From positions 1 through 64,000 of the IMG/VR virus record IMGVR_UViG_3300020472_000018: a stretch of DNA of 64,000 nt; one strand, given 5' to 3'. This DNA is from a virus. Of this stretch, positions 15,748 through 34,100 are shown in pieces. The position numbers and the translations under genes are program-made. How positions within the stretch are numbered: the first letter of the stretch is position 1; each line of letters starts with the position of its first letter. The notes under the pieces are model-generated. The model did no database searches. It saw nothing but the letters and a program-made list of their open reading frames with translations, and had not been told where the DNA came from.

Positions 15748-16740
15748 ATGGCAATTGCACCAGTAAATAAGTTTATTAATATTGCTGTTCCTGTTGCACC
15801 AGGAGTACAGAAACTTTATGAGGTTCCTACAGGAACTTCTGCATTATTGTTATATGCACAAGTATCTAATGTTGCTGTTGGAACAACTTATCCTACAACT
15901 ACATTTTGGCAGAGAAGAACGCAGAGAAGTACTGGTAGTACAAGAGATGTAAGAGTAATAAAATCAGCAGAAATACCACCACAGGATGCATTAATAATGG
16001 TGGATGGTAGAATTGTATTAGAAAAAACTCCTTTAGTAGTTGATAGTTTATTCATTAGAGGAACACAACAAGGAGTTGGTATTATTACTGATGTTCAATA
16101 TGATGAACCATCAGGAATTGCTACAGTTCATACTGAGATAAAGCATGGATTTAGTGCTGGTGATCAGATTAGTATGGGTGGTATGTATTTCACTTGTGCT
16201 TCTTATTCTGGTATAACAACTAATATTTTTCCAGATCCTCAGAGATCTTATACTATTGATCAGATTCAAGGTAATGTAGGAACATCAAAAACATTTTCAA
16301 TTGATATTGGTGGTGCTGGTGGAAATGCTCATACCTATAATTCAGCAATACATAGATTTGTTAGAGCAGCTACTGAATGTGTAGAAGTTGTTTCCAGTTC
16401 AAACTATACTGCTGGTGATAAATTTAATGTAAGTAATGCAAGTTATGAAGGATCTACTGGAGAATTAGTTTTAACTTTAGGTGCAAATAATCTTCAAGCA
16501 AATGATACAATAAAAATTGCAGATAATTCTTTAGTATTTACTTGCACTATGGATAATAATTATAGTGAACATTCTTATCCAAGATCAACAGATCCAGCAT
16601 TTAATACTCCATTAACACTTGCTATTGCTATTGCAAATGAATCAATTAGGGTTCAAGTTGGTAAGTCAAGTGCTGGTGGATTTGTTGCTCCATTAGAAAT
16701 GGAGTTAATCGCAAGTATTCTAGAGAATAGTAATGTCTAA
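15748..16740 (+). CDS. Virion structural protein (fibre adaptor candidate)
   Basis: Beta-rich; FTCxxD..H.YPR.TDP cyanophage repeat; overlaps the next gene. Confidence 0.5.
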
Positions 16741-18550
16741 GCGATATTTGAGTGGTCGGGTTAAGAGAACCCCACAAGACCAATTAAAAGATGATAGGTA
16801 TAAGTATCTCGGATTAGAACAGGCAGAACCTAATCTTGCAGATCCTGGTACAACACCACCAGTTCCTTCTGGACAGCAATATCAGTTAGTTGCTATTCCT
16901 GCGTTTCCAGGTAAAAGATATTGGGTTCCTGTTGGTGGTGGATTAATTCCAGGTGCTATTAGTGTATATGATGAAGGTATTCTTGTTAGTGCTGCAAGTA
17001 GTATTACCCAACTTAATTTTGTTGGAGCAGCAGTAACTGCTGCAGCAGATCCTCAACATCCTTCAGGGCATCCAGGTATTGCTGCAACTGTAACTGTTAT
17101 ACCTGTTACTATTGGTTCTGATCCTCCAGTTAATCCAAATCATGGAGAGTTATGGTGGGAAGATGATATAGGTGATTTATGTATTTGGTATGATGATGGT
17201 GATAGTAGTCAGTGGGTTACTGTAGTTGCTAGTGGAAATGGAGGAGGTCCTACAGGTCCTGCAGGTCCTCCAGGTGGTCCAGGTGCTCCAGGTGGTGGCG
17301 GTCCTGCTGGTCCTCCAGGTCCTCCAGGTTCAGATGGTCCAGTAGGACCAGGTGGAACAGGACCTACTGGTCCTCCAGGTCCTCCAGGATCAAGTGGTCC
17401 TACAGGTCCAGCAGGTGGTCCTCCAGGTCCCGTAGGTCCTCCAGGTCCAACAGGTACTCCAGGATCTGATGGTGCTGATGGCGATACTGGTCCTCCAGGT
17501 CCTGCTGGTCCTCCAGGTCCCGATGGTCCTACAGGTGGATCAGGTCCTACAGGTGGTCCAGGTCCTACAGGTCCTCCAGGTCCAGATGGTCCTACTGGTC
17601 CTGCTGGTGGTCCTCCAGGTCCCGATGGTCCTCCAGGTCCTCCAGGAACAACAGGTGGATCAGGTCCTCCAGGTCCAGATGGTCCCGCAGGTCCTCCAGG
17701 TCCAGCAGGTGGTCCTCCAGGTCCTGATGGTCCAGATGGTCCCGCAGGTCCTCCAGGTCCCGATGGTCCTCCAGGTCCAGGTGGTCCTCCAGGTGCAGGT
17801 GGTGGTTCTGGTATTCCAACTGGTGCAATTTTAATATGGTCTGGTGCTGCAAATGCTATTCCTTCTGGATGGGTATTATGTGATGGAAATAATAGTACTC
17901 CAAATTTAACAAATAGATTTGTTGTTGGTTCTGGTGCTAGTTACTCAGTTAATGATACTGGTGGTAGTGCTAATTCAGTAGTTGTATCACATAACCACGG
18001 TGCTAATGTTAATATTAGTGGTGGAGGTGCTCATACACACTCATTCTCAGATTCCTTTACTGCATCTGGATCTCACTCTCATAGTTTTTCAGATTCTTTC
18101 TCTGCATCTGGATCTCACTCTCATACTTTCTCTGGATCTAATTCACACAGCCACGGTTTAAATTTAAGCGATTCTGCTCACCAACATACTACTGCAATAC
18201 CTTCTGGATCTCAGGGTATTGATACTGATAGTCATGGTCATGATATGAGCATTTATTCAGGTGCTACCAATTCTTCATCTTGGGGTGCAACTGCTAATGT
18301 TAGTGGTACTGTTTCATCATCCTCAATTTCTGTTTCTGGAAATACAAGTAGTCAAAGTGTAAGTATTTCTGGATCTGTTTCTGGAAATACAAGTAATGAA
18401 AGTGTAAGTATTTCTGGATCTGTTTCTGGAACTACTGGTTCTGGTGGTAGTGGTGTAAGTGGATCAGCAACAATTGATTCTGAAGGTGTTACAGGAACGA
18501 ATAAGAATCTTCCTCCATATTATGCACTATGTTACATCATGAAAACTTAA
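16733..18550 (+). CDS. Collagen-like tail fibre with tail-collar domain and HxH needle
   Basis: ~185-aa Gly-X-Y tract; [11 protein letters not shown]...[21 protein letters not shown] collar; 7 HxH motifs; [14 protein letters not shown] end. Confidence 0.85.
18045..18435 (+). repeat. Tandem 42-nt and 45-nt coding repeats in the fibre needle
   Basis: 2x TCAGATTCYTTYWCTGCATCTGGATCTCACTCTCATA; 2+ copies of TCTGTTTCTGGAAATACAAGTA..AAAGTGTAAGTATTTCTGGA. Confidence 0.8.
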
Positions 18551-18578
18551 AATAAATAAAGAGGTATATTAATATTTA

Positions 18579-20204
18579 ATGTCAGGACATACTCCCAGAA
18601 TTGATTTTCCAGCTAATCCCAATGTAGGAGAAGATTACTCCTATAATAACTCCATTTGGAGATGGGATGGATATGTGTGGAGAAGAATTCCTGATCCTGG
18701 TGCTCCAGGTCCAACAGGTCCTGCAGGTCCTCCTGGTTTTACTGGTCCCACAGGTCCCACAGGTCCCGATGGTCCTGTAGGACCTCCTGGTCCTGCTGGT
18801 GGTCCTCCAGGTCCTCCAGGTAATGATGGAACTCCTGGTCCTCCAGGTGGAGATGGTCCTCCAGGTATTGGTGGTCCTACTGGTCCTCCAGGTAATGATG
18901 GTCCTCCAGGTCCTCCAGGTCCTAATGGTGTTGGAACTCCTGGTCCTCCAGGTAATGATGGTCCCACAGGTCCTACTGGTCCCACAGGTCCTACTGGTCC
19001 TCCTGGTCAAAATCAAGGTCCAGCAGTTACTGAAGTATTTGTAAAACAATATAAGCAAGATGGCGTAGAACGAAGTTGTGAAAGTCCTGTTTTTGTCACT
19101 GGTGGTGATACAATTGGGATTGGATCGACAAGTAATGCTTACGGAAATAGATTTGCTCAAAATGATGATCCAACAACGGCTCCTGGTGGTAGTTGGAATG
19201 TTTGTGATGGAGATTTATGGTATGATTTAGATTCTGGTGCTGGTGGTGGTCCTGGTCCTGCTGGTCCTCCTGGACCTCCTGGTCCTCCTGGTGGTGGACC
19301 TCCTGGACCTCCTGGTCCTCCAGGAAATGATGGTGGTGTTGGTGGAGATGGTCCTCCTGGACCTCCTGGTCCTCCTGGATCTGGTGGATCAGGTGGTGCT
19401 AATGTAACCACTGATGATAATCCACCTAGTAATCCTACTGATGGAGATCTTTGGTGGGATTCGGCTAATGGTCGATTAAATGTATATTATGATGATGTTG
19501 ATAGTTCACAATGGGTTAGTGCTAGTGCTGCAGGAGTTGGACCTGATGGTCCTGCTGGTCCTCCAGGTAATGCTGGTCCCCCAGGTCCTCCAGGATCTGG
19601 TGGTGCAACTGATAAAATAGAAGAAGGTAATACTTCTGTTGAAACTATTGATACTGGTACTAACGGTAAGATTATTTTTGAAACAGAAGGAAGTGATAGG
19701 TGGGAAATTAGTAGTGCTGGTCATCTTCTTCCAGTAGATCATGAAGATTATGATATAGGATCAGCATCTAGAAAGGTAAGACATTTATTCTTATCTGATA
19801 ACAGTATAAAATTTGTTAAGAGTGATAATACAGTTAATTCATTAGGCATATACACAGGCACTGATGCATTAACTTGGACTGGATCATACGGTGCTATGAG
19901 ACTAGGTGGACATATTATCCCTACATCAAATGCAGTATATGATCTAGGTAATGCAGAATATAAGATTAGACATTTATTCTTATCAGATAATAGTTTAAAA
20001 TTCGTAGGTGCTGATGATGTAGTACGTGCGGTTGGTATTACCAATGGCAATTTAACCTATATGGGTAATCAATTATTAACAGTTTCTCTTGATAGTCCTC
20101 AAGCTGGACATATTTTAGAGTATAATGGTACAGTATGGGCGAATAAGGTTAATAGTGGTTCTGCAACATCTCCATTTGAAAGTAATTGGCATATGCCACT
20201 CTAA
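18579..20204 (+). CDS. Collagen-like fibre protein (plug, half-socket and socket motifs)
   Basis: [16 protein letters not shown]-terminus; three Gly-X-Y tracts; GDLWYD and GDLWWDS...SSQWV; duplicated [13 protein letters not shown]. Confidence 0.8.
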
Positions 20205-20228
20205 ATAGTAAACAGGAATTTAAAGATT

Positions 20229-20627
20229 ATGGCAGCAACAATCTATAACGGAGTAATGCAGGGTACGGGAGCAGATCATACACAAACTCTCTATACTAAC
20301 AATACAGGTGGAAATGTTAGATTAATATTTAATTACTTTCAAACTGGTGCAGCAAGTCCTGGAATTTTTCGTATCTATATTGGAACAACAAGTGCTCCTA
20401 CCCATCCTAGTGGTGGTGATCTTGATACAATGGAGCTTAATCCACCTAGTAATACTATATACGGAAAAAATATGATCAATAATCCTATAAATGAAGCAGG
20501 TAATGCTTGGCCTACTGAATTAATGTTAGCTAATAATAATTCCATTTGGGTAAGAATGCCTACACAGATTCATAATTATAATACGGCAATAATTTATAAT
20601 TTTACGGTAGTACCAGAGACTAACTGA
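20229..20627 (+). CDS. Small fibre-tip/cap protein, paralog 1
   Basis: MAATIYNG..YTNNTGGNVRLIFNY..PTELML..FTVVPE; paralog of 21122 and 24708. Confidence 0.6.
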   Translation: MAATIYNGVMQGTGADHTQTLYTNNTGGNVRLIFNYFQTGAASPGIFRIYIGTTSAPTHPSGGDLDTMELNPPSNTIYGKNMINNPINEAGNAWPTELMLANNNSIWVRMPTQIHNYNTAIIYNFTVVPETN

Positions 20628-21097
20628 TGGCAGTAAATTTTCCAAATAGTCCTTCAACTAACGACACCCACACCGAGAATAGTTTAACTTGGAAGTGGGA
20701 TGGGACTACCTGGATTATTCAATCTGTTGCACCTCCTGGTCCTGCTGGTCCTCCAGGTCCTCCTGGTAACGATGGTAATGATGGTAATGATGGTACTCCA
20801 GGATCTGATGGTAACGATGGTACTCCAGGTGGTGCAGGACCTCCTGGTCCTCCTGGTTCTCCAGGACCTCCTGGATCTGGGGGTGGTGCTAGTGTAACTA
20901 CTGATGATACTCCTCCAACTTCACCTAATGATGGTGATCTTTGGTGGGATTCTGAAGAAGGAGTTTTAAATGTGTATTATGAGGATGCTAATAGTTCTCA
21001 ATGGGTTAATGCTTCTGGTAGGGGTAATATAGATCTATCATCTATTAAATCTCCAAATCTTTTATTCCAAAGTCAGAATTGGAATATACCTTTCTAA
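20627..21097 (+). CDS. Short collagen-like fibre/linker protein
   Basis: [15 protein letters not shown], Gly-X-Y tract, GDLWWDS..SSQWV, C-terminal [10 protein letters not shown]. Confidence 0.75.
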
Positions 21098-21121
21098 ATA
21101 TTAAACAGGGATTATAAAATT

Positions 21122-21508
21122 ATGGCAGCAACAGTACATAACGGATCTATAACACCAGGTAGCACTTATACTTATGTTAATAATACTAATAAAAATGTAA
21201 GGATTGTTATTAATTATCTGTGGTTTGGACAATCTGGTAGTAATCCTTGGCTGTATATTGGAACGGGACAAGGTCAAAATGGTGATGCTACAACAATAGC
21301 TATTGAATTACTTGCTGGACAGGCATATGGAAAACAACTTGGTTTTATTAGAGGTGATGATCATACAGCAATTCAAGCACAAGGTCCACAAGGTTTTCAT
21401 TGTCCTCTAGAGTTTTTTCTAGCTGAAGGAATGCATTTTATTATAGAGATATTAGGTAATCATAATAAAAATACAATGTTTAATTTTGTAGCAATAACTG
21501 AAGATTAA
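21122..21508 (+). CDS. Small fibre-tip/cap protein, paralog 2
   Basis: MAATVHNG..YVNNTNKNVRIVINY..PLEFFL..FVAITE. Confidence 0.6.
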   Translation: MAATVHNGSITPGSTYTYVNNTNKNVRIVINYLWFGQSGSNPWLYIGTGQGQNGDATTIAIELLAGQAYGKQLGFIRGDDHTAIQAQGPQGFHCPLEFFLAEGMHFIIEILGNHNKNTMFNFVAITED

Positions 21509-21510
21509 TA

Positions 21511-22455
21511 ATGGCAATAGATTTTCCTGCGAGTCCTAGTACCAATGATACCCATACTCATAATGGGTTGACTTGGACTTTTGATGGGACAACGTGGAAA
21601 ATAAACACAACAGTTCAGAGTGGTTCAACTACATTTACAGGTTTAACAGATACACCTTCAAGTTATACTAGTCACGGTAGTAAATTTGTTAAGGTTAATA
21701 GTGCTACTAATGCATTAGAATTTGATTCTGCTGGTGGTGGAGTAACAGATGGTGATAAAGGAGATATTACAGTATCAAACTCTGGTGCAACTTGGAATAT
21801 TGATGCTAGTACTATTGGTACTACTGAATTATCTGCAACAGGAACAAAAGATGCTACAACATATTTGAGAGGAGATAATACTTGGCAAACTATAAGTAGT
21901 GGTGCTAGTGTAACTACATCTGATACACCACCTTCTAGTCCTAGTGATGGTGATCTTTGGTGGGATTCACAAAATGGTAGATTACTTGTATATTATGAGG
22001 ACGCTAATAGTTCTCAGTGGGTTGATGCTTCAGGTAGAGGTGTAAATAATTCTGTTTCACAGGAGACTGGAACATTCAGTTTAACATTAAGTCCTAATTG
22101 TCAAAATGCTGCAGTTAGTACTGGTAATTATGTAAAGACTGGTAATATGGTTACTGTTGATTTTAATGTATATCATAATGGTGGAACTGCTGGAGATACC
22201 AATTTACGATGGGGTGGACAGAATCAATATTTTACAATAAATGATACTTCATTACGTCCTGTGGCTACAGCAGGACTTTTCTACAATAGAAGATATTTTG
22301 ATTGCCCACCTGGCAATGTTACTGGTACATTAGGGGTGTGGGTAGGTACTTGTGGTGTTACTCCTACTGGTGAAATATATACTTCTAGTTCAATGGCAGC
22401 AGGACCAGGACAATATGGAATATATTATTTTAGTGGTAGTTGGAGGGTAGCATAA
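21511..22455 (+). CDS. Fibre protein with C-terminal beta-sandwich receptor-binding domain
   Basis: IDFPASP plug; FTGLTDTP, TDGDKGDIT, TYLRGDNTW fibre motifs; GDLWWDS socket; ETGTF..GNYVKTGNMVTV C-terminus. Confidence 0.7.
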   Translation: MAIDFPASPSTNDTHTHNGLTWTFDGTTWKINTTVQSGSTTFTGLTDTPSSYTSHGSKFVKVNSATNALEFDSAGGGVTDGDKGDITVSNSGATWNIDASTIGTTELSATGTKDATTYLRGDNTWQTISSGASVTTSDTPPSSPSDGDLWWDSQNGRLLVYYEDANSSQWVDASGRGVNNSVSQETGTFSLTLSPNCQNAAVSTGNYVKTGNMVTVDFNVYHNGGTAGDTNLRWGGQNQYFTINDTSLRPVATAGLFYNRRYFDCPPGNVTGTLGVWVGTCGVTPTGEIYTSSSMAAGPGQYGIYYFSGSWRVA

Positions 22456-23918
22456 TGGCAATAGATTTTCCTACAAGTCCTAGTCTTAATGCCACTCATA
22501 GTCATAATGGTTTAATTTGGAAGTGGGATGGTACATCTTGGATTTTACAAACAACTATACAATCTGGTGTAACTCAAATACCACCTATGGTTAATGTTGC
22601 AGACTATGGAGCACTTCCAAGTGCTAGTGGTGCAGCAAATAGAACTGGTATTGAAAATGCTATTAACTCATTAGCATCTACGGGAGGAATGGTTTATATT
22701 CCTACAGGAACTTATGATATAACAGGTACTATATTATTAGATAGTGGAACTTTGGGTGATGGTGGTGGTATAAGTATTATTGGTGCAACTGAGAATTATA
22801 GAATTAGTGCTGCTGATGCTGAAGGCACTTTGCTAAGATCTACTGATGCTGGTAGTGATATAATCAAAGTAAATAACGTAAGAAATGTAACTTTTGCCAA
22901 CTTAGCATTTGATCATAAAGACGGCACACCTAGAAATGGTGGAAATGCTATTCATTGTTATTCTAATGTAAATACTCAACAAATTAGAATGGATAGGATT
23001 TATATCCGAAATCAATTTGGTGGTATTAAAATGGATGGACATTCCATTTCAACATTCAGAGATATAGAGATTAGAGATATTGTAAATGAAGGTGGTTCTT
23101 TTGGAATGTTATTCAGTGCTTCTGCTGGTGGATCGGAAAGAGTTGATCAGATAAGATGTGAGAATGTTTTAATTGATGGTGTGATTAGTGGAAGTCCACA
23201 TCCAACTGCAAATGGATTATGGGTTAAGGATTTTGTAAATTCAATATGGTTCCTTAATTGTGTATCTAATCGTTGTAATAAAGGATTATTAATGGATGCA
23301 ACTGTTCCTAGTGGAGATACAGGTAATCCTGGTTCATTCTTTAGAATAAATGATTGTGATTTTGATACTAATAATTCATATGGTATTGAGATTGCTGGTG
23401 GTAGTTTTATATGGATTAATAACCCATATATAAGTAGTAATCTTATTAATGGTTTGAGAACTAGTTCGACTTTTAGTGGTGTTTTAAGATTGAATGCTGC
23501 AGATTGTAGAGGTAATGGTCAGCACGGAATTTATATTCGCTCTGATCAACATAAAAAAATTCATATAAGAGACTCTCAGTGTTCTTATAATTCTGCATCT
23601 AATACCAATGCTTATGATGGACTTCATATATACGATGATGGTGCTGCATCTGTAAATCAATCTGATATAATGATTGATGGTGGACAGTATGGTGGAGATA
23701 TGATGGGAGGCATTAATGATGGTGGTGGTGGTCCTGGAACAACACAGAGGTATGGAATTAATTTTACTGCTAATATTAAATACAAAAGAATCATTATTAA
23801 TAATGTAGATTGTTCTGCAAATTTAACAGGATCACATAGATTTACAGTTGGTAATGGAACTGATAATATGATTCATAATGTTATTCCATTCCACGGATCA
23901 CACTCAGGTGCTCATTAA
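22455..23918 (+). CDS. Tailspike-like right-handed beta-helix (pectate-lyase-like) protein
   Basis: Start reassigned to MAIDFP (TAATG coupling); [22 protein letters not shown] pectate_lyase_3 entry motif; N/D ladders. Confidence 0.8.
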
Positions 23919-24682
23919 TGGCTGTTAAACTCAGAAAAGATGGCAGTTGGGTAACTATAGTAGGTAATGGACCTCCAGGTCCTGCAGGACCTCCAGGTCC
24001 TGATGGTCCCGATGGTCCTGCAGGTCCTCCAGGAAATGATGGTGCTGATGGTACTCCTGGTCCCGCAGGTCCTCCTGGTCCTATAGGTCCTCCTGGTCCT
24101 CCAGGTCAAGATGGTAATGATGGTGGTACAGGTCCATCAGGACCTCCAGGTCCAACAGGTCCCGATGGTCCAGTAGGTCCTACTGGTCCTTCAGGTGGTC
24201 CTCCAGGTCCCGATGGTCCTCCAGGTCCTCCAGGAAATGATGGTGCTGATGGTCCTGGTGGTCCGCCAGGTCCTCCTGGTCCTGCTGGTGGTCCTCCAGG
24301 TCCCGCAGGTACTCCAGGTCCTGCTGGTCCTCCAGGTGTTGCTGGATTAACTATTGCAGAAATTCCACCAACTACTCCTACTCCATCTCATGGTGATATG
24401 TGGTGGGAAAGTGATACAGGACATCTATATGTTTATTATGATGATGGTGATAGTAGTCAATGGGTAGCAACATCTCAAGGTCCTGCTGGATCTCCAGGTG
24501 CTCCTGGTGGTCCTCCAGGTCCTGATGGTCCCGCAGGTCCTCCAGGTCCCGATGGTCCTCCAGGTCCTGGTGGTGGTGGACCTCCAGGTCCTCCAGGTTC
24601 TCCAGGTCCTCCAGGTTCATCTGGTACTGCTGGAACATATCCATTTGAGACTGGTAATTGGCTTCTTGGAATAGGTCACTAA
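23918..24682 (+). CDS. Collagen-like fibre/linker protein
   Basis: [13 protein letters not shown]-terminus, long Gly-X-Y tracts, [15 protein letters not shown]-terminal PFETGNWLL. Confidence 0.8.
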
Positions 24683-24707
24683 ATATTAAACAGGAGATTT
24701 AAACATT

Positions 24708-25109
24708 ATGGCAGCTGAAGTATTTACAGGACAATTAGCAGCAAATAATACGTTTACCTATACTAATAGTACAGGTGGTAATGTTCGTGTTGTTATTAAT
24801 TACATTTACACTCAAACTAGTAGTACTCCAACTATTGAATTTGGAGATGCATCAGCAACTGGACAGAATGCATATTGGACTACTAGAACATTCTTTAACT
24901 TGACTCAAAATACAACTTTTGGAAAGTCTGTAGGTTGGTCTTCTCCTACAAAAACTACTGGTCAAGCTGCAGTATCTTCTGGTGGTAATGACACTGGTGG
25001 TCCTACTGAAGTGTATTTGAAGAATACTGAGACTTTTAAAATTACTGCAAGTTCTGGATCAAGTTATGCTTGGGGTTGTAGATATCAAATTGTAGTAATA
25101 CCAGAATAA
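24708..25109 (+). CDS. Small fibre-tip/cap protein, paralog 3
   Basis: [35 protein letters not shown]. Confidence 0.6.
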
Positions 25110-25110
25110 T

Positions 25111-27723
25111 ATGGCAGCATTCGATTTTCCAAATAGTCCGTCCCTTAACGATACCCATACAGAAAATGGGGTAATTTGGAAGTGGAATGGATATGCTTGG
25201 GATCGAGTTCCAAGTAGTGGTCCGCAAGGTGCTCCTGGTCCAACTGGACCAACTGGACCAAATGGTCCTTCAGGTCCATCAGGTCCTCCAGGTACTCCAG
25301 GTTCAGGTGGTGATGATGGTCCTCCAGGTCCAGATGGTCCTCCAGGTGCAGATGGTCCTCCAGGTCCTCCAGGAACTGGTGGTACTGTTGGTCCTCCAGG
25401 TCCAGATGGTCCTGCAGGTCCTCCAGGTGCTGGTGGTCCTCCAGGTCCTCCAGGTGTTGCTGGATTAGATATTGGAGTTGATCCTCCAACTGGTCCTTCT
25501 ACCCACGGAGATATGTGGTGGGAAAGTGATACTGGAGATTTACATGTTTATTATAATGATGGTAATAGTTCTCAATGGGTAGCAGTATCTCAAGGACCTG
25601 CTGGACCTGAAGGACCTCCAGGACCTCCTGGAACTGGTTCTGGTCCTCCAGGACCTCCTGGTTCTTCTACCTTTATAGGTTTAACAGATACCCCGAATAG
25701 TTTTACTGCTGATAAATGGTTAAAGGTTAATAGTGGTGGAACTGCTTTAGAATGGACTCCTGCTGGTTCTGGTACTCCTGGTCCTCCAGGTCCTCCTGGT
25801 AATGATGGTAATGATGGGCAAGATGGTAATGATGGTCCTCCAGGTCCTCCAGGATCAGGCGGTGCAACTTATGACTTTATTACAGTTGATCATGGTTCAT
25901 CTACTGGATCTGGAACTGGTAATGATGTAGTTTTACGTCATAGTGATGGTACAACACATAATGATGTAAGACTTGTTGCTGGAAGTAATGTAACTTTCCA
26001 ACATAGCTCAGCTAATAATTTCTTTACTATATCATCATCAGGTAGTGGTTCTACTACTTTAGATAAGATAATAGAGGGTGATACAAAAGCAGAAGTAGTT
26101 GATAGTGGTACAGATGGATATTTTACTGTTGAAACAAACGGTACAGAAAGAATACGTATAACTGATGGTGAATTAAGACTTAAGAGAACTGATACTACTT
26201 TAGAGGGTGGGCAAATATGCTTTGATAATATTGATGGTGATCGAGCATATGCAATTGATGCTTATGGAAATAATGCTGCTAATACTATCCTTAGAATTAT
26301 TGATGAACAAACAATAACTGGAGGTGTAGGTACTCAAAGGTTTGCTATTGATAGAGGTGGTGCTCTTGGGTTAGGTAATGTAGGAGCTGAAGATTGGGGA
26401 TCTTCAGGTGATGTATTAACAAGTCAAGGTGCTAATGCATTACCTATATGGGGTCCTGCTGGTTCTGGTAGTCCTGGTCCTCCTGGACCTCCAGGTTCTG
26501 GTAGTGCTGCTGGAAATAATACTGAATTCCAATATAATAACAATGGATCATTTGCTGGTAATGAGCTTTTATTAGCAACCAATGACACATCATTTACTGG
26601 TAGTGGTGCAAGTATAACTCTTAATGGAGCTACACGTTGGGGTTTTGGTAATATTACTTGGGAACCTGATGTTGGTTGTTTAGCTCTCACGAGAGATTCA
26701 TTCTTAATTTTTGGATCACCTGATAATGCTGTTTATCAGATGAAAGCTAGCATAGGTTGGGCTAGCTCTGTTAATAGATGGATTATGAATAATCCCACTG
26801 ATGGAATGCCTTGGCATTTTGAAACCAGAGGTGAGATGGTATTCAAAAAGCAGAATAGTCCTGAAACTATTCATATGACTATTGATCCTACTAGTGGTGT
26901 TAGTATTAAGAATCAGTTAGATTTAGCAACTGCTACTATTCTTGATAAGGATGGACAAGCAGGAAGTAGTGGTCAAGTATTAAGTTCAACTGGAACTGGA
27001 CTTGATTGGGTTAGTGTTTCTAGTGGATCTCCTGGACCTCCTGGACCTCCTGGACCTCCAGGTGATGATGGTGAAAATGGTACTCCAGGTATTCCAGGAC
27101 CTCCTGGGGAATCAACGACTACTGATCAAGGATTTAATATGGTACAATGGACTAGTACTACTAATGCAACTTATGTGTACTATACTCCTGATACAACTAA
27201 GTATAATAGGTGGGTTGTAATTGTCACTGGCGGTGGCGGTGGCGGTGGGGGAGGTTCTGCTGCTAACGCTGGAGGTGGTGGCGGTGGTGCTGGTACTGGA
27301 ATAAGAGAATTTACCAAAGCAGAAATGGATGATAATAGCTATTACAGTGGACAATGTCGTATTTTTGTAGGACAACCTGGATCTGGTGGAACAGGTGGTG
27401 GTAATGGTGGTAATGGAAATTATTCTGAATTTGTAGTACCTACTGGAACTGCAACCTTTGGTCATAGTGGTTATGGTGGTGCTGGTGGTAACAGTGGAGC
27501 CATAGCTGCTGGTGGTAATGGTAGGTTTGGTGTTGGTGATATTGAATGTGGTGGTGATGAAGGTCATCCTGGAGATAATGGAATCACAGGACATGGCGGT
27601 GGTACTTTCTGGGGTGGTGCAGCCTATGACTCAGCTGGTAGAGGTGGTAGAGGTGGTCAAACTGGTAGTAATAATGGTGGTGACGGTGGTCACGGACAAA
27701 TAGTTCTGTTGGAGTTTGCTTAA
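25111..27723 (+). CDS. Collagen-like fibre with C-terminal glycine-rich adhesin-like domain
   Basis: FDFPNSP plug, several Gly-X-Y tracts, HGDMWWESD socket, [12 protein letters not shown]...[11 protein letters not shown] glycine-rich tip. Confidence 0.8.
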
Positions 27724-27729
27724 TCAATT

Positions 27730-28272
27730 ATGTCTTCTTTTAGTAGTAAATCTTTAGTTGAAATATTGGCACTTACTCGGTCTCAAGTCATAGCATCTAA
27801 AAATACTGATTTTAGTTCTTTTAGAACTGGTATTGGAACTGATAGATTAGATTTTGCTGTAGTTAAAGATGGAACTAATATAGTGAATCACATTTATGTT
27901 GGATATGCAGATACTTCTAAAAATCCAACTAATTCGGAAATAGGATTTGCTGGACATTATACTGTTGGTATTGGTAGTACATATAGAGGAACTTTTAATG
28001 ATATAGATAATCAATGCCTTGTAAGACTTGGTTGGAAATATACTCAATCATCTGGATTTTATGATGCTCATGATTATACAGAAGAATGGACTGCAGGTTT
28101 AAGGCAAACTAGAGATAAATTTTTACTTGAATCTGATTGGTCTCAAGGTGCTGATTCTCCATTAAGTTCTAGTAAAAAAACTGAGTGGGCTACATATAGG
28201 CAAGCATTAAGAGATTTACCTGCAAATACTTCAGATCTTGCAAATCCACCTTGGCCAACAAAACCATCATAG
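27730..28272 (+). CDS. Tail fibre assembly chaperone
   Basis: LRQTRDKFLLESDWSQ..D.PL...EWATYRQALRDLP..WPTKP. Confidence 0.85.
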   Translation: MSSFSSKSLVEILALTRSQVIASKNTDFSSFRTGIGTDRLDFAVVKDGTNIVNHIYVGYADTSKNPTNSEIGFAGHYTVGIGSTYRGTFNDIDNQCLVRLGWKYTQSSGFYDAHDYTEEWTAGLRQTRDKFLLESDWSQGADSPLSSSKKTEWATYRQALRDLPANTSDLANPPWPTKPS

Positions 28273-28281
28273 AGTAAGAAT

Positions 28282-29430
28282 ATGGCAGCGTTTGATTTTC
28301 CAAATAGTCCTAGTACAAATGATACCCATACAGAAAATGGTGTTACTTGGAAGTGGGATGGATATGCTTGGAAAAGAGTTGAATCAGTAGGACCTTCAGG
28401 ACCTCCTGGACCTCCAGGTAATGATTCAACAGTTCCAGGTCCTCCTGGTTCAACAGGTCCCACAGGTCCTACAGGTCCCACAGGTTCAACTGGTAATACT
28501 GGAACTCCAGGATCTGATGGTAATGATGGTACTCCAGGTTCTGATGGTTCTGATGGTAATGATGGTCCTCCAGGTCCAGATGGTCCTGCAGGTCCTCCAG
28601 GTTCTGGTGGTTCTGCAGGTCCTCCAGGTCCAGATGGTCCCGATGGTCCAACAGGATCTCCAGGTGCTGATTCGACTGTTCCTGGTCCGACTGGTCCTCC
28701 TGGTTCAACAGGTGGTGATGGTCCTCCAGGTCCCGATGGTCCTCCAGGTCCCGATGGTCCTCCTGGTTCAACAGGTCCAACAGGTCCTGATGGTCCAACT
28801 GGTCCAACTGGTAGTGCAGCTAATCCATCTGTTCCTTCAGGAGCTGTTATGTTGTTTTATAGTTCATCTGCTCCTACTGGATGGACAAAACAAACATCAC
28901 ATAACAATAAAGCACTCAGAGTTGTGAGTGGTTCTGGTGGTGGTTCTGGTGGTAGTAATGCATTTACCAGTAATTTTGCTAGTAGATCTTTAAGTACTAG
29001 TGGATCTGGAAGTATTAGTGGATCTACAAGTAGTGATAATTCTGGATCTGTAAGTATTAGTGGTAATTGTGGTGGATCACAGATAGTGTATGTTACTACC
29101 ACTCAAAATTGGTTATCGATAGATCAGATGCCATCTCACCAACATCAATTCCCTAGTAAAGTTGGAACTTCTGGTGGCAACTATGGTTTTCTAGATACTT
29201 TAAATGCTGGTTCTTCAGGAACTCCTAGTGTTAATGCTACTGGTGGCAGTAACTACCACACACATGCTGTAATAATGTATACTATAAGTGGTTCTAACTT
29301 CACTTTTAGTGGATCTGGTTCTCCTAGTGATCACAATCATACTGTCAGTGGATCTGCAAGTGTTAGTAGTTCAGGTTCTTTGGACTTGGCAGTTCAGTAT
29401 GTTGATGTTATAATATGTACAAAGAACTAA
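28282..29430 (+). CDS. Collagen-like fibre with collar-like domain and HxH needle
   Basis: FDFPNSP plug; long Gly-X-Y tract; PSGAVMLF..APTGWTK..ALRVVSG; LS.DQMPSHQH; VQYVDVIICTKN. Confidence 0.8.
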   Translation: MAAFDFPNSPSTNDTHTENGVTWKWDGYAWKRVESVGPSGPPGPPGNDSTVPGPPGSTGPTGPTGPTGSTGNTGTPGSDGNDGTPGSDGSDGNDGPPGPDGPAGPPGSGGSAGPPGPDGPDGPTGSPGADSTVPGPTGPPGSTGGDGPPGPDGPPGPDGPPGSTGPTGPDGPTGPTGSAANPSVPSGAVMLFYSSSAPTGWTKQTSHNNKALRVVSGSGGGSGGSNAFTSNFASRSLSTSGSGSISGSTSSDNSGSVSISGNCGGSQIVYVTTTQNWLSIDQMPSHQHQFPSKVGTSGGNYGFLDTLNAGSSGTPSVNATGGSNYHTHAVIMYTISGSNFTFSGSGSPSDHNHTVSGSASVSSSGSLDLAVQYVDVIICTKN

Positions 29431-29434
29431 TATA

Positions 29435-29770
29435 ATGAAGATTGAAGCAGGTAAATTCTGCCCTTTAATTGGTAAGGATTGTATACAATTACAATGTTCT
29501 TGGTTTACTCAGGTTCGTGGAATCAATCCTAATACTGGAGAAGAAATTGATGATTGGGGTTGTGCAGTTACTTGGTTGCCAACTTTAATGATTGAAAATT
29601 CACAGCAACAAAGAGCAACTGGTGCTGCTATTGAATCTTTTAGAAATGAAACTGTGAAATCAACTATGAAAGCACAAGAAATATATCAAAGAGAATTAGA
29701 ATTAAAAGCTCAAGAAAGATTAATGAAATCTAGACAGACAATACATAACGTAACGGACATAGAAGAATGA
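29435..29770 (+). CDS. Cys-rich fibre-associated hypothetical protein
   Basis: CPLIGKDC...CSWF...WGCA plus C-terminal coiled coil; lies between fibre and chaperone. Confidence 0.6.
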   Translation: MKIEAGKFCPLIGKDCIQLQCSWFTQVRGINPNTGEEIDDWGCAVTWLPTLMIENSQQQRATGAAIESFRNETVKSTMKAQEIYQRELELKAQERLMKSRQTIHNVTDIEE

Positions 29771-30276
29771 AATTAACAGTTGTTCCACCAGATAAAACCA
29801 TAGTTATTGACAATGTTTCAGTACATCCTTGTACTCATGTCGATCTTTCTTGGATTCCATCAGATGTTCATGGAATGTGTTTTGATACTACTACAGGAAA
29901 AGGTTTTATTGAATATAATGAAGATGCTGTAGATGCAAATGGAGATAAAAAATGGGGTGAGGATATTACTGAAATTGGTATCTGGCAACAAGCAGTAACA
30001 GATCATGCGAATGAACAAACCCTTGCAACTGCTGCATATGAAGCAGCAAGAAATCATTTAACTGAGGTAAAGGATCATAGAAATTGGTTGCTTGCTGTTA
30101 GTGATTGGACTCGTTTGGATGATGTTACACTTGCAGCAGATAAAAAAACTGAGTGGCAAACATATAGACAAGCATTAAGAGATCTTCCAGCAACCATATC
30201 AGCAGATGATAATTTAACTGCTAAATTATTAGCAGATAATCACTCACATTCTGGTTGGCCGACAAAACCTTCATAA
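29767..30276 (+). CDS. Tail fibre assembly chaperone
   Basis: RNWLLAVSDWT..D...EWQTYRQALRDLP..WPTKPS. Confidence 0.8.
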   Translation: MKLTVVPPDKTIVIDNVSVHPCTHVDLSWIPSDVHGMCFDTTTGKGFIEYNEDAVDANGDKKWGEDITEIGIWQQAVTDHANEQTLATAAYEAARNHLTEVKDHRNWLLAVSDWTRLDDVTLAADKKTEWQTYRQALRDLPATISADDNLTAKLLADNHSHSGWPTKPS

Positions 30277-30310: not shown

Positions 30311-30904
30311 ATGAATGATTTGATTCAAGCAATTAAAATTCTTAGTGTAAATGATCTTAAAAAGATTAATAAGTACATAGATACTCTTGATTTTCAAGAT
30401 AATACTGTTTTTGGTAAACCAGGTCAAAAATCAAAAACTAATACTAGTATTAGATCCAGCACAGGAACAACTTTAAAAGAAGATAATGAAATAACTGAAA
30501 TTGTTCATAATGCTATGAATAAAGGGTTGGATGAATATAAGAGAAGAGTACAAAAGGTTCATACCAATTTTAGTTATTATCCTGTTCCTGGTGGATCTGG
30601 AACTAAATCTTGGAGAGAGGGAATACAGGTATTAGATTATAAAAAAGGGCAAGAATATAAATTTCATCATGATGCTGCAACAGATCCTAGATTGAAAGAA
30701 TATCATAGAAAGATATCTATTATTTTATATCTGGAAGAAGCGACTAAAGGTGGAGGAACTTCATTTCCACATTTGGGAATAAAACCAAAACCAGGTTATG
30801 CTTTAATATTTCCATCTAATTGGTGTTATCCTCATGCAGGTGAACCAGTTTATGCTGGAAAAAAGAGAGTTGCTGTTACTTGGTATTATGTTGAAAACGC
30901 TTAA
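30311..30904 (+). CDS. 2OG-Fe(II) oxygenase, prolyl-4-hydroxylase-like
   Basis: EGIQVLDY..GQEYKFHHD (HxD), RKISIILYL, GGGTSF, LIFPSN..YPHAGEPV..GKK (distal His, 2OG-binding Lys). Confidence 0.85.
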   Translation: MNDLIQAIKILSVNDLKKINKYIDTLDFQDNTVFGKPGQKSKTNTSIRSSTGTTLKEDNEITEIVHNAMNKGLDEYKRRVQKVHTNFSYYPVPGGSGTKSWREGIQVLDYKKGQEYKFHHDAATDPRLKEYHRKISIILYLEEATKGGGTSFPHLGIKPKPGYALIFPSNWCYPHAGEPVYAGKKRVAVTWYYVENA

Positions 30905-31156: not shown

Positions 31157-34100
31157 ATGCCTCTTAATAAATTAGAAAATTTTATAAAGAATAGTGAAGG
31201 ACGCATTCTTTATGTAAACCCAAATGACCTTGATGCTACTGATGGTATTGAGAATCAGGGAAATTCCCTAACAAAACCTTTCAAAACGATTCAAAGAGCA
31301 CTCATTGAATCTGCTAGATTTTCTTATCTGAAAGGTAATGATAATGATATAGTAGAGAAAACAACTATATTATTATTTCCAGGTGAGCACCTTATAGACA
31401 ATAGACCAGGATTTGGTATAAAGGATGTAAATGGAACTGCTACAGCAATTAGTCCTAGTAGTTCAGAATCTGGAGCACAGAATACTCTTACATTAACTCT
31501 TAATTCTAATTTTGATTTAACGCAAGAGAATAATATACTCTATAAGTATAATAGTACAGAAGGTGGTGTTATAGTTCCAAGAGGAACATCAATTGTTGGA
31601 CTAGATTTAAGAAAGACTAAGATAAGACCTAAGTATGTTCCAAACCCAACAGATGATAATGTAAAACCTACTGCTATTTTTAGGGTTACAGGTGCTTGTT
31701 ATTTCTGGCAATTCTCTATATTTGATGGGGATGATTCTACTTTAGTATATACAGATCCTACTAATTTCTCAACTAGCAATCAATCTAAACCAATATTCTC
31801 TCACCACAAATTAACTTGTTTTGAGTATGCTGATGGTATTAATAAGTTAGATAATTTTGGTGGATTAACTGATTTAGATGTTTACTATAGTAAATTATCT
31901 AATGCTTACAATAGAGCATCTATTAGAGATATTGATGAGAAGTTTCCAGTTGCTTCACAGGGATTTGCAAAATCAAGACCTGAGTATGAAATAGTTGGTG
32001 CTTTTTCTTCAGATCGTATTCAGATACAGAATATTATTTCTGGTGATGGTAATACTGCTGGTCAGGTAGTTACAGTAACTACTGCAGTTCCACACCAATT
32101 AAGTGGTGATACTCCAATTAAAATTGAGGGTGTAAATGAATTAGCATATAATATTTCAACTAAAGTTCAAAATGTTTTAAATGAAACTCAATTTACATAT
32201 TTACTTCCATATGTTCCACCTAACCTGAAAGCAGGTCCTTCTGGTGGATTAAGTGCTGGTAGTGCTGAAGTTAGTGTAGAAGTTGATACTGTTACTGGTG
32301 CATCACCTTATATCTTTAACTGTTCACTAAGATCAGTTCTTGGTATGTGTGGTATGAAGGCTGATGGTGCAAAAGCAACTGGATTTAGATCTATGGTTGT
32401 AGCACAGTTTACTGGTGTTTCGCTACAAAAGGATGATCGTGCGTTTGTAAAATATAATCCTAATAGTAGATCATATGATGGTATTACATATCAGAGACAA
32501 ACTGGTGAGTTATTATCATCTGAAGCATCTTCTTTAAATCAAGCAACTGTTTATCATTTAGATAAGGATGCTGTTTATAGAGATGGTTGGAAGACGGCAC
32601 ATATTACACTAGAAAATGATGCTGTATTGCAGATCGTTTCTGTGTTTGCTATTGGTTATCATATTCACTTCTTAATGAAGTCGGGTGGTGACGCATCAAT
32701 TACAAACTCTAACTCTAACTTCGGTCAGTTTGCTCTTGCTGCTAGTGGATTTAAGAAAGAATCATTTGCAAAGGATAATAAAGGTTATATTACATCTATT
32801 ATTACACCAAAAGCAGTTGTTAGTCCAGAATCTGTAATTGATTTAACTCAACTTGATACTTCTGTAAACCAAGATTATAAAGCTGCTGATAGTTCACCTT
32901 GGACTGATAGTAAGTCTAAACTATTCATGTTGGGGCAAACTAATGGAAATCTTAAACCAACTGATATTGCACAAGGATTTAGAATAGGTGCGAGATTTAA
33001 TGAAAAGATTTATGTAGATTTAGCAAATGGTACTAAAACTGAAGCTACCATTTCTATGTCTAAGAAGACGGGTACTACCACAGTTAATGGTGTAGAGTAT
33101 GATATAACTGCAACAGTAGATATTACTTCTGAAAAGTCATATGAGGGTGTTCATAATGATACCACTCAAGGAAGTGCATCTTTAGTTCATAAATTAACAT
33201 TATCACAACCAAATGGTAATCCACATGATTTAAACAATGGTGAGTCTATAAGGATTATTGCTGAAAGTGGTGATCTTCCAGAAGGAATAGATCCTCATAG
33301 AAAGTATTATGCAATTACTTCTGAAAAGAATGGATCTAGACAGGATAGTATTCAGTTAAGTCAGTGGGAAATTCAGATTGCTTCATCTAAAACAAATGCT
33401 GAAAGGACAACTCCTGCATATATTAAATCTGTTTCAAATCCTGCTGCTGGTAAATTAAAAGTTATTAGTAGAGTTTCTGATAAGAAACCAGGTGAATTAG
33501 GACATCCAATGCAATTTGATGGTGTAAAACAAAATTGGTTTACACACGTTAGTGTTAATAATAATACTATATGGGATAATTTTGCAGATTTAGATGCTAA
33601 TGATGAGGATATTCCATACATTTTAAGGAGAACTGATGATAGGAGTTTAGATGATAAACTCTATAAGATCAGATATGTCATTCCAAAGGAATTAGAAAAT
33701 GCTAGAAACCCTAATGATAGTTTTGTAATTCAAGATTCTAGTTCTACTAATGTAAGATTTGATGCTGACTTTACTAGGACTTCAATTGGATCAACTGATT
33801 ATGATTATCATAGGAATTTAAGATTCGTTTCTCATCTTGATTATAATAGTACCACTAAGATTGTTACTATTAGATCTGATAAATCTCATAATTTAAATGC
33901 AGGTGAGCAAATTATTCTTAAGAACATAACTGATACCATTAATACAAATGGTGCAGCAGATAAGGGATATAATGGAACATTCCTTGTTAATAGTATTATT
34001 AATGATAAAACATTTACTTATAAAACAACTGATGTTTTAGGTAATGTTCGTAATGTAGGAACTTATAATAATGATACTAATATTAGGAATACTGGATTAC

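Follow-up and report, generated by a model that had tools for sequence, protein, structure and literature searches.

The DNA analysed here, referred to as the window, comprises positions 1 to 64,000 (64 kb) of IMG/VR virus record IMGVR_UViG_3300020472_000018. The whole record is 75.9 kb long, about 30% of a genome, and comes from a T4-like cyanomyovirus near the Prochlorococcus phages P-SSM2 and P-SSM5 (Kyanoviridae, Salacisavirus). The window holds an array of eight fibre genes and smaller neighbours, all on the plus strand, parts of which show 76-80% DNA identity to the P-SSM2/P-SSM5 relatives. Two short protein modules recur in the array, and an earlier note made from this sequence had called them plug and socket: the plug follows the pattern xFPxxP...W.[WF][DN]G..W and lies at the N-terminus, and the internal socket follows the pattern P..P..G[DE][LM]WW...G.L..[YW]Y.D.[DN]SSQWV. 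The note proposed that plugs dock into the sockets of preceding fibres, so that the array would encode a branched receptor-binding apparatus, and this proposal is the subject of the present analysis.

Plugs, sockets and the genes that carry them

Searching all six reading frames with the two patterns as regular expressions, we found one plug each at the starts of six open reading frames (ORFs; 18579, 20627, 21511, 22455, 25111 and 28282) and one socket each in six (16733, 18579, 20627, 21511, 23918 and 25111), as the note had claimed; the same search gave no further plug or socket in the 64 kb. Profile searches over the whole 75.9-kb record returned the same six and six, with expectation values (E) of 1e-22 to 1e-27, and the plug profile gave an additional weak, partial match at the start of 23918. 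The claim that each socket gene precedes a plug gene also holds, with four small ORFs interposed that the note did not mention (20229, 21122, 24708 and 27730). As a gene inventory the note was right about the fibres, but it left out three paralogous genes, here called cap paralogs, and two tail assembly chaperones recognised by PF16778 (cut-off 26.6 bits). The features of the array, all on the plus strand, are as follows.

16733-18550, plus strand: putative anchor fibre g16733, with a conserved N-terminal domain (residues 1-124), one socket, then collagen over a long stretch, and a tail-collar/HxH C-terminus (PHROG 2097 and 1800, tail fibre; PF01391)
17105-17236, plus strand: socket 1, HGELWWEDD type, turn charge -4 (regular expression and profile; lies in the predicted interface)
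18579-20204, plus strand: fibre g18579, made up of a plug (18600-18707), collagen, a half-socket, more collagen and a socket, with an F..NW peptide closing its C-terminal domain (regular expression, profile, PF01391)
19173-19244, plus strand: half-socket in g18579, running straight into collagen, without the second half of the module
19404-19535, plus strand: socket 2, DGDLWWDS type, turn charge 0 (regular expression and profile)
20229-20627, plus strand: cap paralog 1, 132 residues, one of three paralogs
20627-21097, plus strand: adaptor-like fibre g20627, with a plug (20627-20737), collagen, a socket (20894-21025) and an F..NW tail
21122-21508, plus strand: cap paralog 2, 128 residues, modelled as a jelly-roll beta-sandwich (AlphaFold2, AF2; predicted local distance difference test, pLDDT, 85; predicted template modelling score, pTM, 0.76)
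21511-22455, plus strand: fibre g21511, with a plug (21511-21621), a TDTP motif, a socket (21910-22041) and a C-terminal domain
22455-23918, plus strand: plug-only spike g22455, with a plug (22455-22565) followed by a pectate-lyase-like beta-helix (PF12708, 45.6 bits; PHROG 3449)
23918-24682, plus strand: fibre g23918, with a half-plug (23918-23989), collagen, a socket (24347-24484), collagen and an F..NW tail
24708-25109, plus strand: cap paralog 3, 133 residues
25111-27723, plus strand: fibre g25111, with a plug (25114-25224), collagen, a socket (25465-25599), more collagen segments and a Gly-rich C-terminus
27730-28272, plus strand: tail assembly chaperone (PF16778, 61.9 bits)
28282-29430, plus strand: plug-only fibre g28282, with a plug (28285-28398), collagen and an HxH C-terminus
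29767-30276, plus strand: second tail assembly chaperone, a paralog of 27730 (PF16778, 52.6 bits)

Residues 1-124 of g16733, which match PHROG 2097, are conserved in 29 dereplicated loci and within the array are unique to this first fibre gene. At the other end of the first gene run, the beta-helix spike tip that the note had foreseen is indeed present, in the pectate-lyase-like g22455. The gene that follows, g23918, has no full plug; the likeness of its 12-residue start to a plug (or socket) is confined to the last strand. This half-plug and the half-socket of g18579 co-occur in P-SSM2, P-SSM5 and one further locus (L010), and from their sequences the two may represent a split module that links both gene runs.

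Gene order and copy number across phages

For comparison, we fetched 80 of at least 504 IMG/VR loci matched by the socket alignment and added six phage-record loci from five cultured phages, which together hold 226 sockets and 137 plugs. Motif copies were counted by profile; tblastn counts are less sensitive and were not used. A plug gene was the downstream neighbour of a socket gene in 64 of 113 cases and the upstream neighbour in 16 of 123, one small ORF being allowed between the two, and other long genes had a plug gene directly downstream in 11% of cases. The excess on the downstream side indicates that socket-then-plug order is a real directional rule. Placement within the protein is regular too: by a strict first-Met rule 131 of 137 full-length plugs are N-terminal, one clear outlier having a spurious upstream Met, and the first socket usually starts about 120-155 residues into its protein (interquartile range).

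The same order recurs in other genera of Kyanoviridae (S-H9-1, S-H34, S-CAM4 and ACG-2014i) and in complete non-T4-like phages of 44-80 kb. In P-SSM2 itself there is a second locus (L111, 217085-221372), in which PSSM2_295 (1170 residues) runs to 220597 and PSSM2_296, with a plug at its start, begins 11 nucleotides on, at 220608; this fourth socket-plug pair lies about 195 kb from the main array, and the subtilase gene PSSM2_297 stands next to it.

Six IMG/VR records rated 100% complete (L050, L070, L055, L056, L074 and L042; 44-80 kb) carry both modules in small phages that are not T4-like.

When profile counts were compared over 40 whole IMG/VR records, sockets and plugs were equal in number in 25; the equal records listed comprise eight with 1/1, eight with 2/2, five with 3/3, two with 4/4, one with 5/5 and two with 6/6. 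Shuffling the plug counts among the 40 records produced 7.6 equal records on average and 19 at most in 1e5 trials. In all 15 unequal records the sockets exceed the plugs, and about six of these records are truncated at a contig end. Within a single anchor lineage, defined by N-domains at least 75% identical, the socket/plug counts run through 2/2, 3/3, 4/4 and 6/6, which shows that the two numbers change together. Some anchors carry sockets in tandem and are accompanied by an equal number of separate plug genes: two sockets and two plug genes (SS..P..P, L043), three and three (L034), four and four (L057). Parity is also found in the complete cultured genomes of P-SSM2 (4/4), S-CAM4, ACG-2014i, -j and -e, S-RSM4 and Pag-Yong1. 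Count parity is a strong tendency and no law.

These comparisons bear on whether the whole pattern could be a mere by-product of tandem fibre-gene duplication. Duplication of the segment from a socket to the next plug itself yields genes with plug and socket of matching type, and the unit of socket, cap paralog and plug does stand twice in succession in the window. The match of subtypes might then be fortuitous. The note had sorted sockets and plugs into two classes each and reported that they pair without exception; in the window the pairing is indeed 6/6, but taken alone such a two-class match has a chance probability of 0.05-0.1, and as a strict code it fails outside the P-SSM2 clade, where exceptions are many. 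Against duplication stand the age of the copies, since the motif copies are 50-81% identical in DNA, which points to maintenance by selection at the protein level and not to recent duplication or gene conversion; the recurrence of the same rule in distant genera, in the 44-80 kb non-T4-like phages and in the second P-SSM2 locus; and the architectures with tandem sockets and matching numbers of plug genes, which duplication of a single gene junction could not produce. The duplication-only reading is therefore disfavoured, and we regard it as highly improbable.

In the tandem-socket loci the last plug gene usually encodes a plug with a W-x-R-[IV]-P-D-P-G tail (L043, L034, L038, L059, L082, L026 and L028), a type that in the window comes after the anchor socket. 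Its mostly final position suggests a nested gene order, S1 S2 .. P2 .. P1. Unsupervised clustering of subtypes with an analysis of their co-occurrence was also tried, and it gave lineage-level associations only, inseparable from shared ancestry; the same applies to the joint presence of GELWWE sockets and RIPDPG plugs in 27 of 31 loci.

The predicted complex, its charges and its folds

The note had suggested modelling a trimeric socket together with a trimeric plug, and this was done for 16733 and 18579, using three copies of g16733 residues 1-175 and three copies of g18579 residues 1-48, each with its own alignment. The interaction prediction score from aligned errors (ipSAE) was 0.76, 0.76 and 0.79 in three runs, against 0.13 for the best control. 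On calibration, 58 of 80 solved complexes and 2 of 110 mismatched pairs came up to the mark, a yardstick that is a rough one here (own alignments, multiple copies per chain). The pLDDT of the partner was 76, with at least 82% of contacts shared between runs. The prediction supports binding between 16733 and 18579 without demonstrating it. Profile searches of the PDB returned no solved homologue of the modules by sequence, so that recall of a known complex by the predictor is unlikely.

The predicted interface is three-fold symmetric and involves residues 128-131 and 143-168 on the socket side and 5-12, 22-27 and 32-39 on the plug side; it thus falls on both motifs despite the 124 other residues of chain 1 on offer. 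The tightest predicted contacts join socket residues Q160-T163 to plug residues Y32-R36, in register, a geometry that we read as an extension by parallel beta-sheet pairing. The positions by which the note had separated its subtypes (WWE or WWD in the socket, GY.W.R or GT.W.[IL] in the plug) lie inside this predicted interface.

Charges across the modelled contact are complementary. The net charges of socket turn (143-148) and plug tail (32-37) are inversely correlated over 68 unique adjacent pairs (Spearman -0.63, p = 1e-8), and shuffling plugs within loci gave p = 0.00025 for the charge matching. In the window taken by itself, the actual pairing is the most charge-complementary one possible (p = 0.033). 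Anchor sockets with an EDD or EDT turn are matched by RR or KR plugs in 5 of 5 cases, and those with an ESD turn by a single R in 5 of 7 (p = 0.03). By mutual information the predicted contact 148/35 ranks third of 1628 column pairs; interface and non-interface columns as a whole gave no significant difference in mutual information (p = 0.34).

The modelled contact might instead echo a composite domain that plug and socket form together within one chain or a single homotrimer, the pairs of the window then having no role in binding. In some natural proteins a socket does follow a plug after only 5-8 residues (L050, L070, L086, L063 and L065), and in an AF2 model of such a fused protein both modules are confidently folded (pLDDT 81-87). 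In the window, plug and socket of the same protein are 54-234 residues apart with collagen between them, a spacing that should make fold-back within the chain implausible; moreover g16733 has only a socket, and 22455 and 28282 have only plugs. Modules that are fused in some genomes and separate elsewhere are, in addition, the usual signature of interacting partners. We consider the composite domain unlikely.

Comparisons with known families and folds gave little. In the 75.9-kb record, neither PF07880 (T4gp10-like) nor DUF2793 (PF10983) was matched at E<=1; PF07880 was likewise absent from the Pfam and PHROG scans of the fibres, and profile searches of the PDB for this relationship were empty. 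The sole PDB match of the plug, PhiKZ gp184 (E 0.04; 31 columns by Foldseek), is an inner capsid protein, and was for that reason taken as a small shared hairpin motif only. Foldseek found nothing at E<=0.001 for the plug-socket model, and neither Foldseek nor VIA-align placed this model or the cap model in a confident fold family. The socket also recalls the T4 fibritin foldon (P..P.DG...RKDG.WV), a resemblance that sequence searches of the PDB did not support: profile searches with the socket and plug alignments returned no foldon-tagged chain, and foldon homology by sequence was set aside. For common ancestry of the entire socket and plug hhalign gave no support, aligning only a 12-column lead-in, [FP]P.SP..GD (P = 4e-4, 34% probability).

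In a different account, each of the two modules would be an autonomous knot that trimerises collagen-like and beta-structured fibre segments or sets their register, and at the same time a joint for recombination, the fibres attaching individually and the synteny and the counts arising from cassette-wise evolution of fibre genes. Collagen is certainly common in their surroundings. The collagen spacers of the note are found as PF01391 matches in six of the eight fibres (16733, 18579, 20627, 23918, 25111 and 28282; 31-67 bits against a cut-off of 27.2), and in the comparative set collagen lies within about 35 residues after 101 of 134 plugs and on at least one side of 134 of 223 sockets; it is dispensable for the module all the same, since the other 89 of 223 sockets lack it on both sides. 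For the socket, VIA-align ranked highest the trimerisation domains of collagens XV and XVIII, with Z of 4.5 (3n3f, root-mean-square deviation 4.0 over 45 residues) and 4.1 (9bnb), which is below the noise level of the tool. Plug and socket have the lead-in in common and also, in the AF2 model of the fused protein, the strand order. In a large protein library the plug profile had 20,289 hits, among them tandem internal repeats of DUF2793-type and collagen-bearing tail proteins, and it also matches Kelch repeats spuriously. Tandem sockets outnumber plugs in S-H34, S-B68 and S-CRM01. As a precedent for recombination joints, T-even phages are known to exchange fibre segments through motifs (Tetart et al. 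1998, as cited in PMC1079782). Knots of this kind leave unexplained, however, why socket precedes plug and why plugs are N-terminal only, why plug numbers track the tandem sockets of one gene, and why charges are complementary across a specific predicted interface with clean controls. A role as trimerisation or register knots is plausible and may coexist with docking; as the full explanation it seems to us possible but rather doubtful.

Docking as a proposed route to multi-tip fibres

We favour docking of plugs into sockets, by which the array would constitute a modular, multi-tip receptor-binding apparatus, and put its probability at roughly 55%. The idea of the note stood up in silico, in gene order, counts, one complex prediction and charges; physical binding, the assignment of sockets to plugs, the branched shape and the attachment to the baseplate are what we infer. 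In the proposed mechanism, g16733 would be the anchor, its conserved N-terminal domain presumably sitting on the baseplate. The socket directly behind this domain is predicted to be a small beta-meander of a lead-in strand, a hairpin and a third strand, and each later plug-bearing fibre starts with its plug, likewise predicted to be a beta-meander, with three strands. In the prediction, the plugs of one trimer surround the socket trimer; the final strand of the plug (Y32-R36 of g18579) pairs in parallel with the final strand of the socket (Q160-T163 of g16733), and the plug's basic tail faces the acidic socket turn (E143-D148). Fibres with both modules (18579, 20627, 21511 and 25111) would relay the connection, and the plug-only 22455 and 28282 would terminate the line. 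The two daisy chains with eight displayed tips that the note drew from the sequence are kept as a hypothesis.

Several observations weigh against docking. Count parity is broken in 6 of 14 complete motif-bearing genomes, with socket/plug counts of 15/10 in S-H34, 10/2 in S-B68, 9/5 in S-CRM01, 1/2 in S-H9-1, 2/4 in ACG-2014f and 1/3 in S-CAM7, and in S-CAM7 the partners are also far apart. Sockets can stand back to back with a period of 46-64 residues, up to five per ORF among the fetched loci, much like an ordinary shaft repeat, and certain giant proteins hold many of them in tandem. In the complex prediction, chain 1 ended at residue 175, directly past the socket, and the parallel strand pairing of the model makes the collagens of both proteins exit at the same end; the model may also echo an intrachain contact learned from the plug-socket fusions of other phages (linker of 5-8 residues). 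Finally, most of the charge signal within loci is contributed by the P-SSM2 clade (p = 0.25 without that clade), and predicted contacts are weakly enriched in mutual information (p = 0.076).

Networks of the proposed type have precedents. In the Ackermannviridae phage CBA120, the receptor-binding proteins TSP1-4, encoded by neighbouring genes, are mounted on one another through N-terminal modules; the domains used there are XD/T4gp10-like, and there are no collagen stalks. Our plug-socket model had weak Foldseek matches to TSP3 and TSP4 (E 0.2-0.3) and no significant match to the CBA120 proteins in sequence or fold. The multiplexin (collagen XV/XVIII) domains and the T4 fibritin foldon are small, beta-rich trimer knots beside triple helices, and neither is known to serve as a docking site for a second fibre.

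The closest parallels in design are the branched systems of receptor-binding proteins (RBPs) of Escherichia coli phage G7C (gp66-gp63.1), of Klebsiella phages KP32, K11 and KP34, of K1-5/SP6 and of the Menlow and PhiK64-1 groups, in which an anchored first RBP carries a docking site and the RBP of the next gene has no anchor but a conserved N-terminal peptide. Phages with multiple RBPs reuse such parts, and the gene order is alike. In KP32, K11 and KP34 the branching domain and the peptide have been shown experimentally to be partners (PMC13352976, PMC6872550). The parts differ: the docking site of those phages is T4gp10-like, and here it is a beta-meander of about 44 residues that occurs 1-5 times per anchor or carrier, often inside collagen; their peptide has 7-29 residues, and the plug is a folded module of about 35. 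Up to six pairs per phage are found here, and the hosts are marine cyanobacteria. The principle of anchor, branch site and docking peptide is thus already known from Klebsiella and E. coli phages, and the modules described here are different ones. No earlier description of them came up in full-text literature searches, which covered the motif strings and the structures of cyanophage fibres.

The long tail fibre of T4 offers a further comparison. In gp34-gp35-gp36-gp37, gene order equals assembly order, and each later N-terminus joins the preceding protein (PMC1079782). That fibre is linear, its parts joined end to end. In the present array the module proposed to receive the next fibre lies inside the protein, and every carrier has a distal domain of its own, so that any assembly would be branched.

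A broader reading, which we put forward tentatively and as doubtful in its entirety, is that plug and socket form a general, reusable connector in marine cyanomyoviruses and some smaller phages. Cognate partners would be set in part by charge, through acidic socket turns and basic plug tails; the number of sockets would set the number of receptor-binding fibres per virion; gene order would record the assembly tree, in nested form where anchors carry tandem sockets; and the split half-socket and half-plug would unite both runs of the window into one eight-tip tree.

Which strains of Prochlorococcus and Synechococcus a T4-like cyanophage can choose as host is a long-standing question, and since the P-SSM2 genome paper (PMC1079782) most annotations of their fibre genes have read "hypothetical" or generic tail fibre. 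If docking is true, a mosaic gene list becomes an assembly plan of anchor, adaptors and exchangeable tips, and the gain or swap of a tip by acquiring one gene plus one socket would be explained. Beyond the enterobacterial phages, the branched-RBP principle would then cover another kind of module and marine viruses that are ecologically dominant. P-SSM2 is in culture and has four pairs, which makes the idea directly testable there.

Cap paralogs and neighbouring genes

Each cap paralog (20229, 21122 and 24708) sits after a fibre that ends in the F..NW peptide (18579, 20627 and 23918). The paralogs have about 130 residues and start with MAAT..NG...NVR, and the 17 members of the family that were found all lie within P-SSM2-like loci. 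Fold searches with the cap model gave generic beta-sandwich matches only and no specific fold relative. From the model and their position, the cap paralogs could be detachable tip adhesins or chaperones.

Further short segments are common to pairs of fibres. F.GLTDTP..[YF]......K.[VL]KVN....LE[FW] occurs in both g21511 and g25111 (approximately 21625-21740 and 25660-25775), and DKI.EG.T...(V/I)D.G..G in g18579 and g25111. Judged by such segments, the fibres are mosaics of several short modules.

The first gene past the array, at 30311-30904, encodes a 2-oxoglutarate (2OG)-Fe(II) oxygenase (PF13640, 58.9 bits), annotated in P-SSM2 as piuC; going by its family, it could hydroxylate proline in the GPP-rich collagens. 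Beyond it, 31157-36844 encodes a protein of 1895 residues with a C-terminal Peptidase_S74 intramolecular chaperone domain (PF13884, 49.9 bits), a large fibre or spike outside the array.

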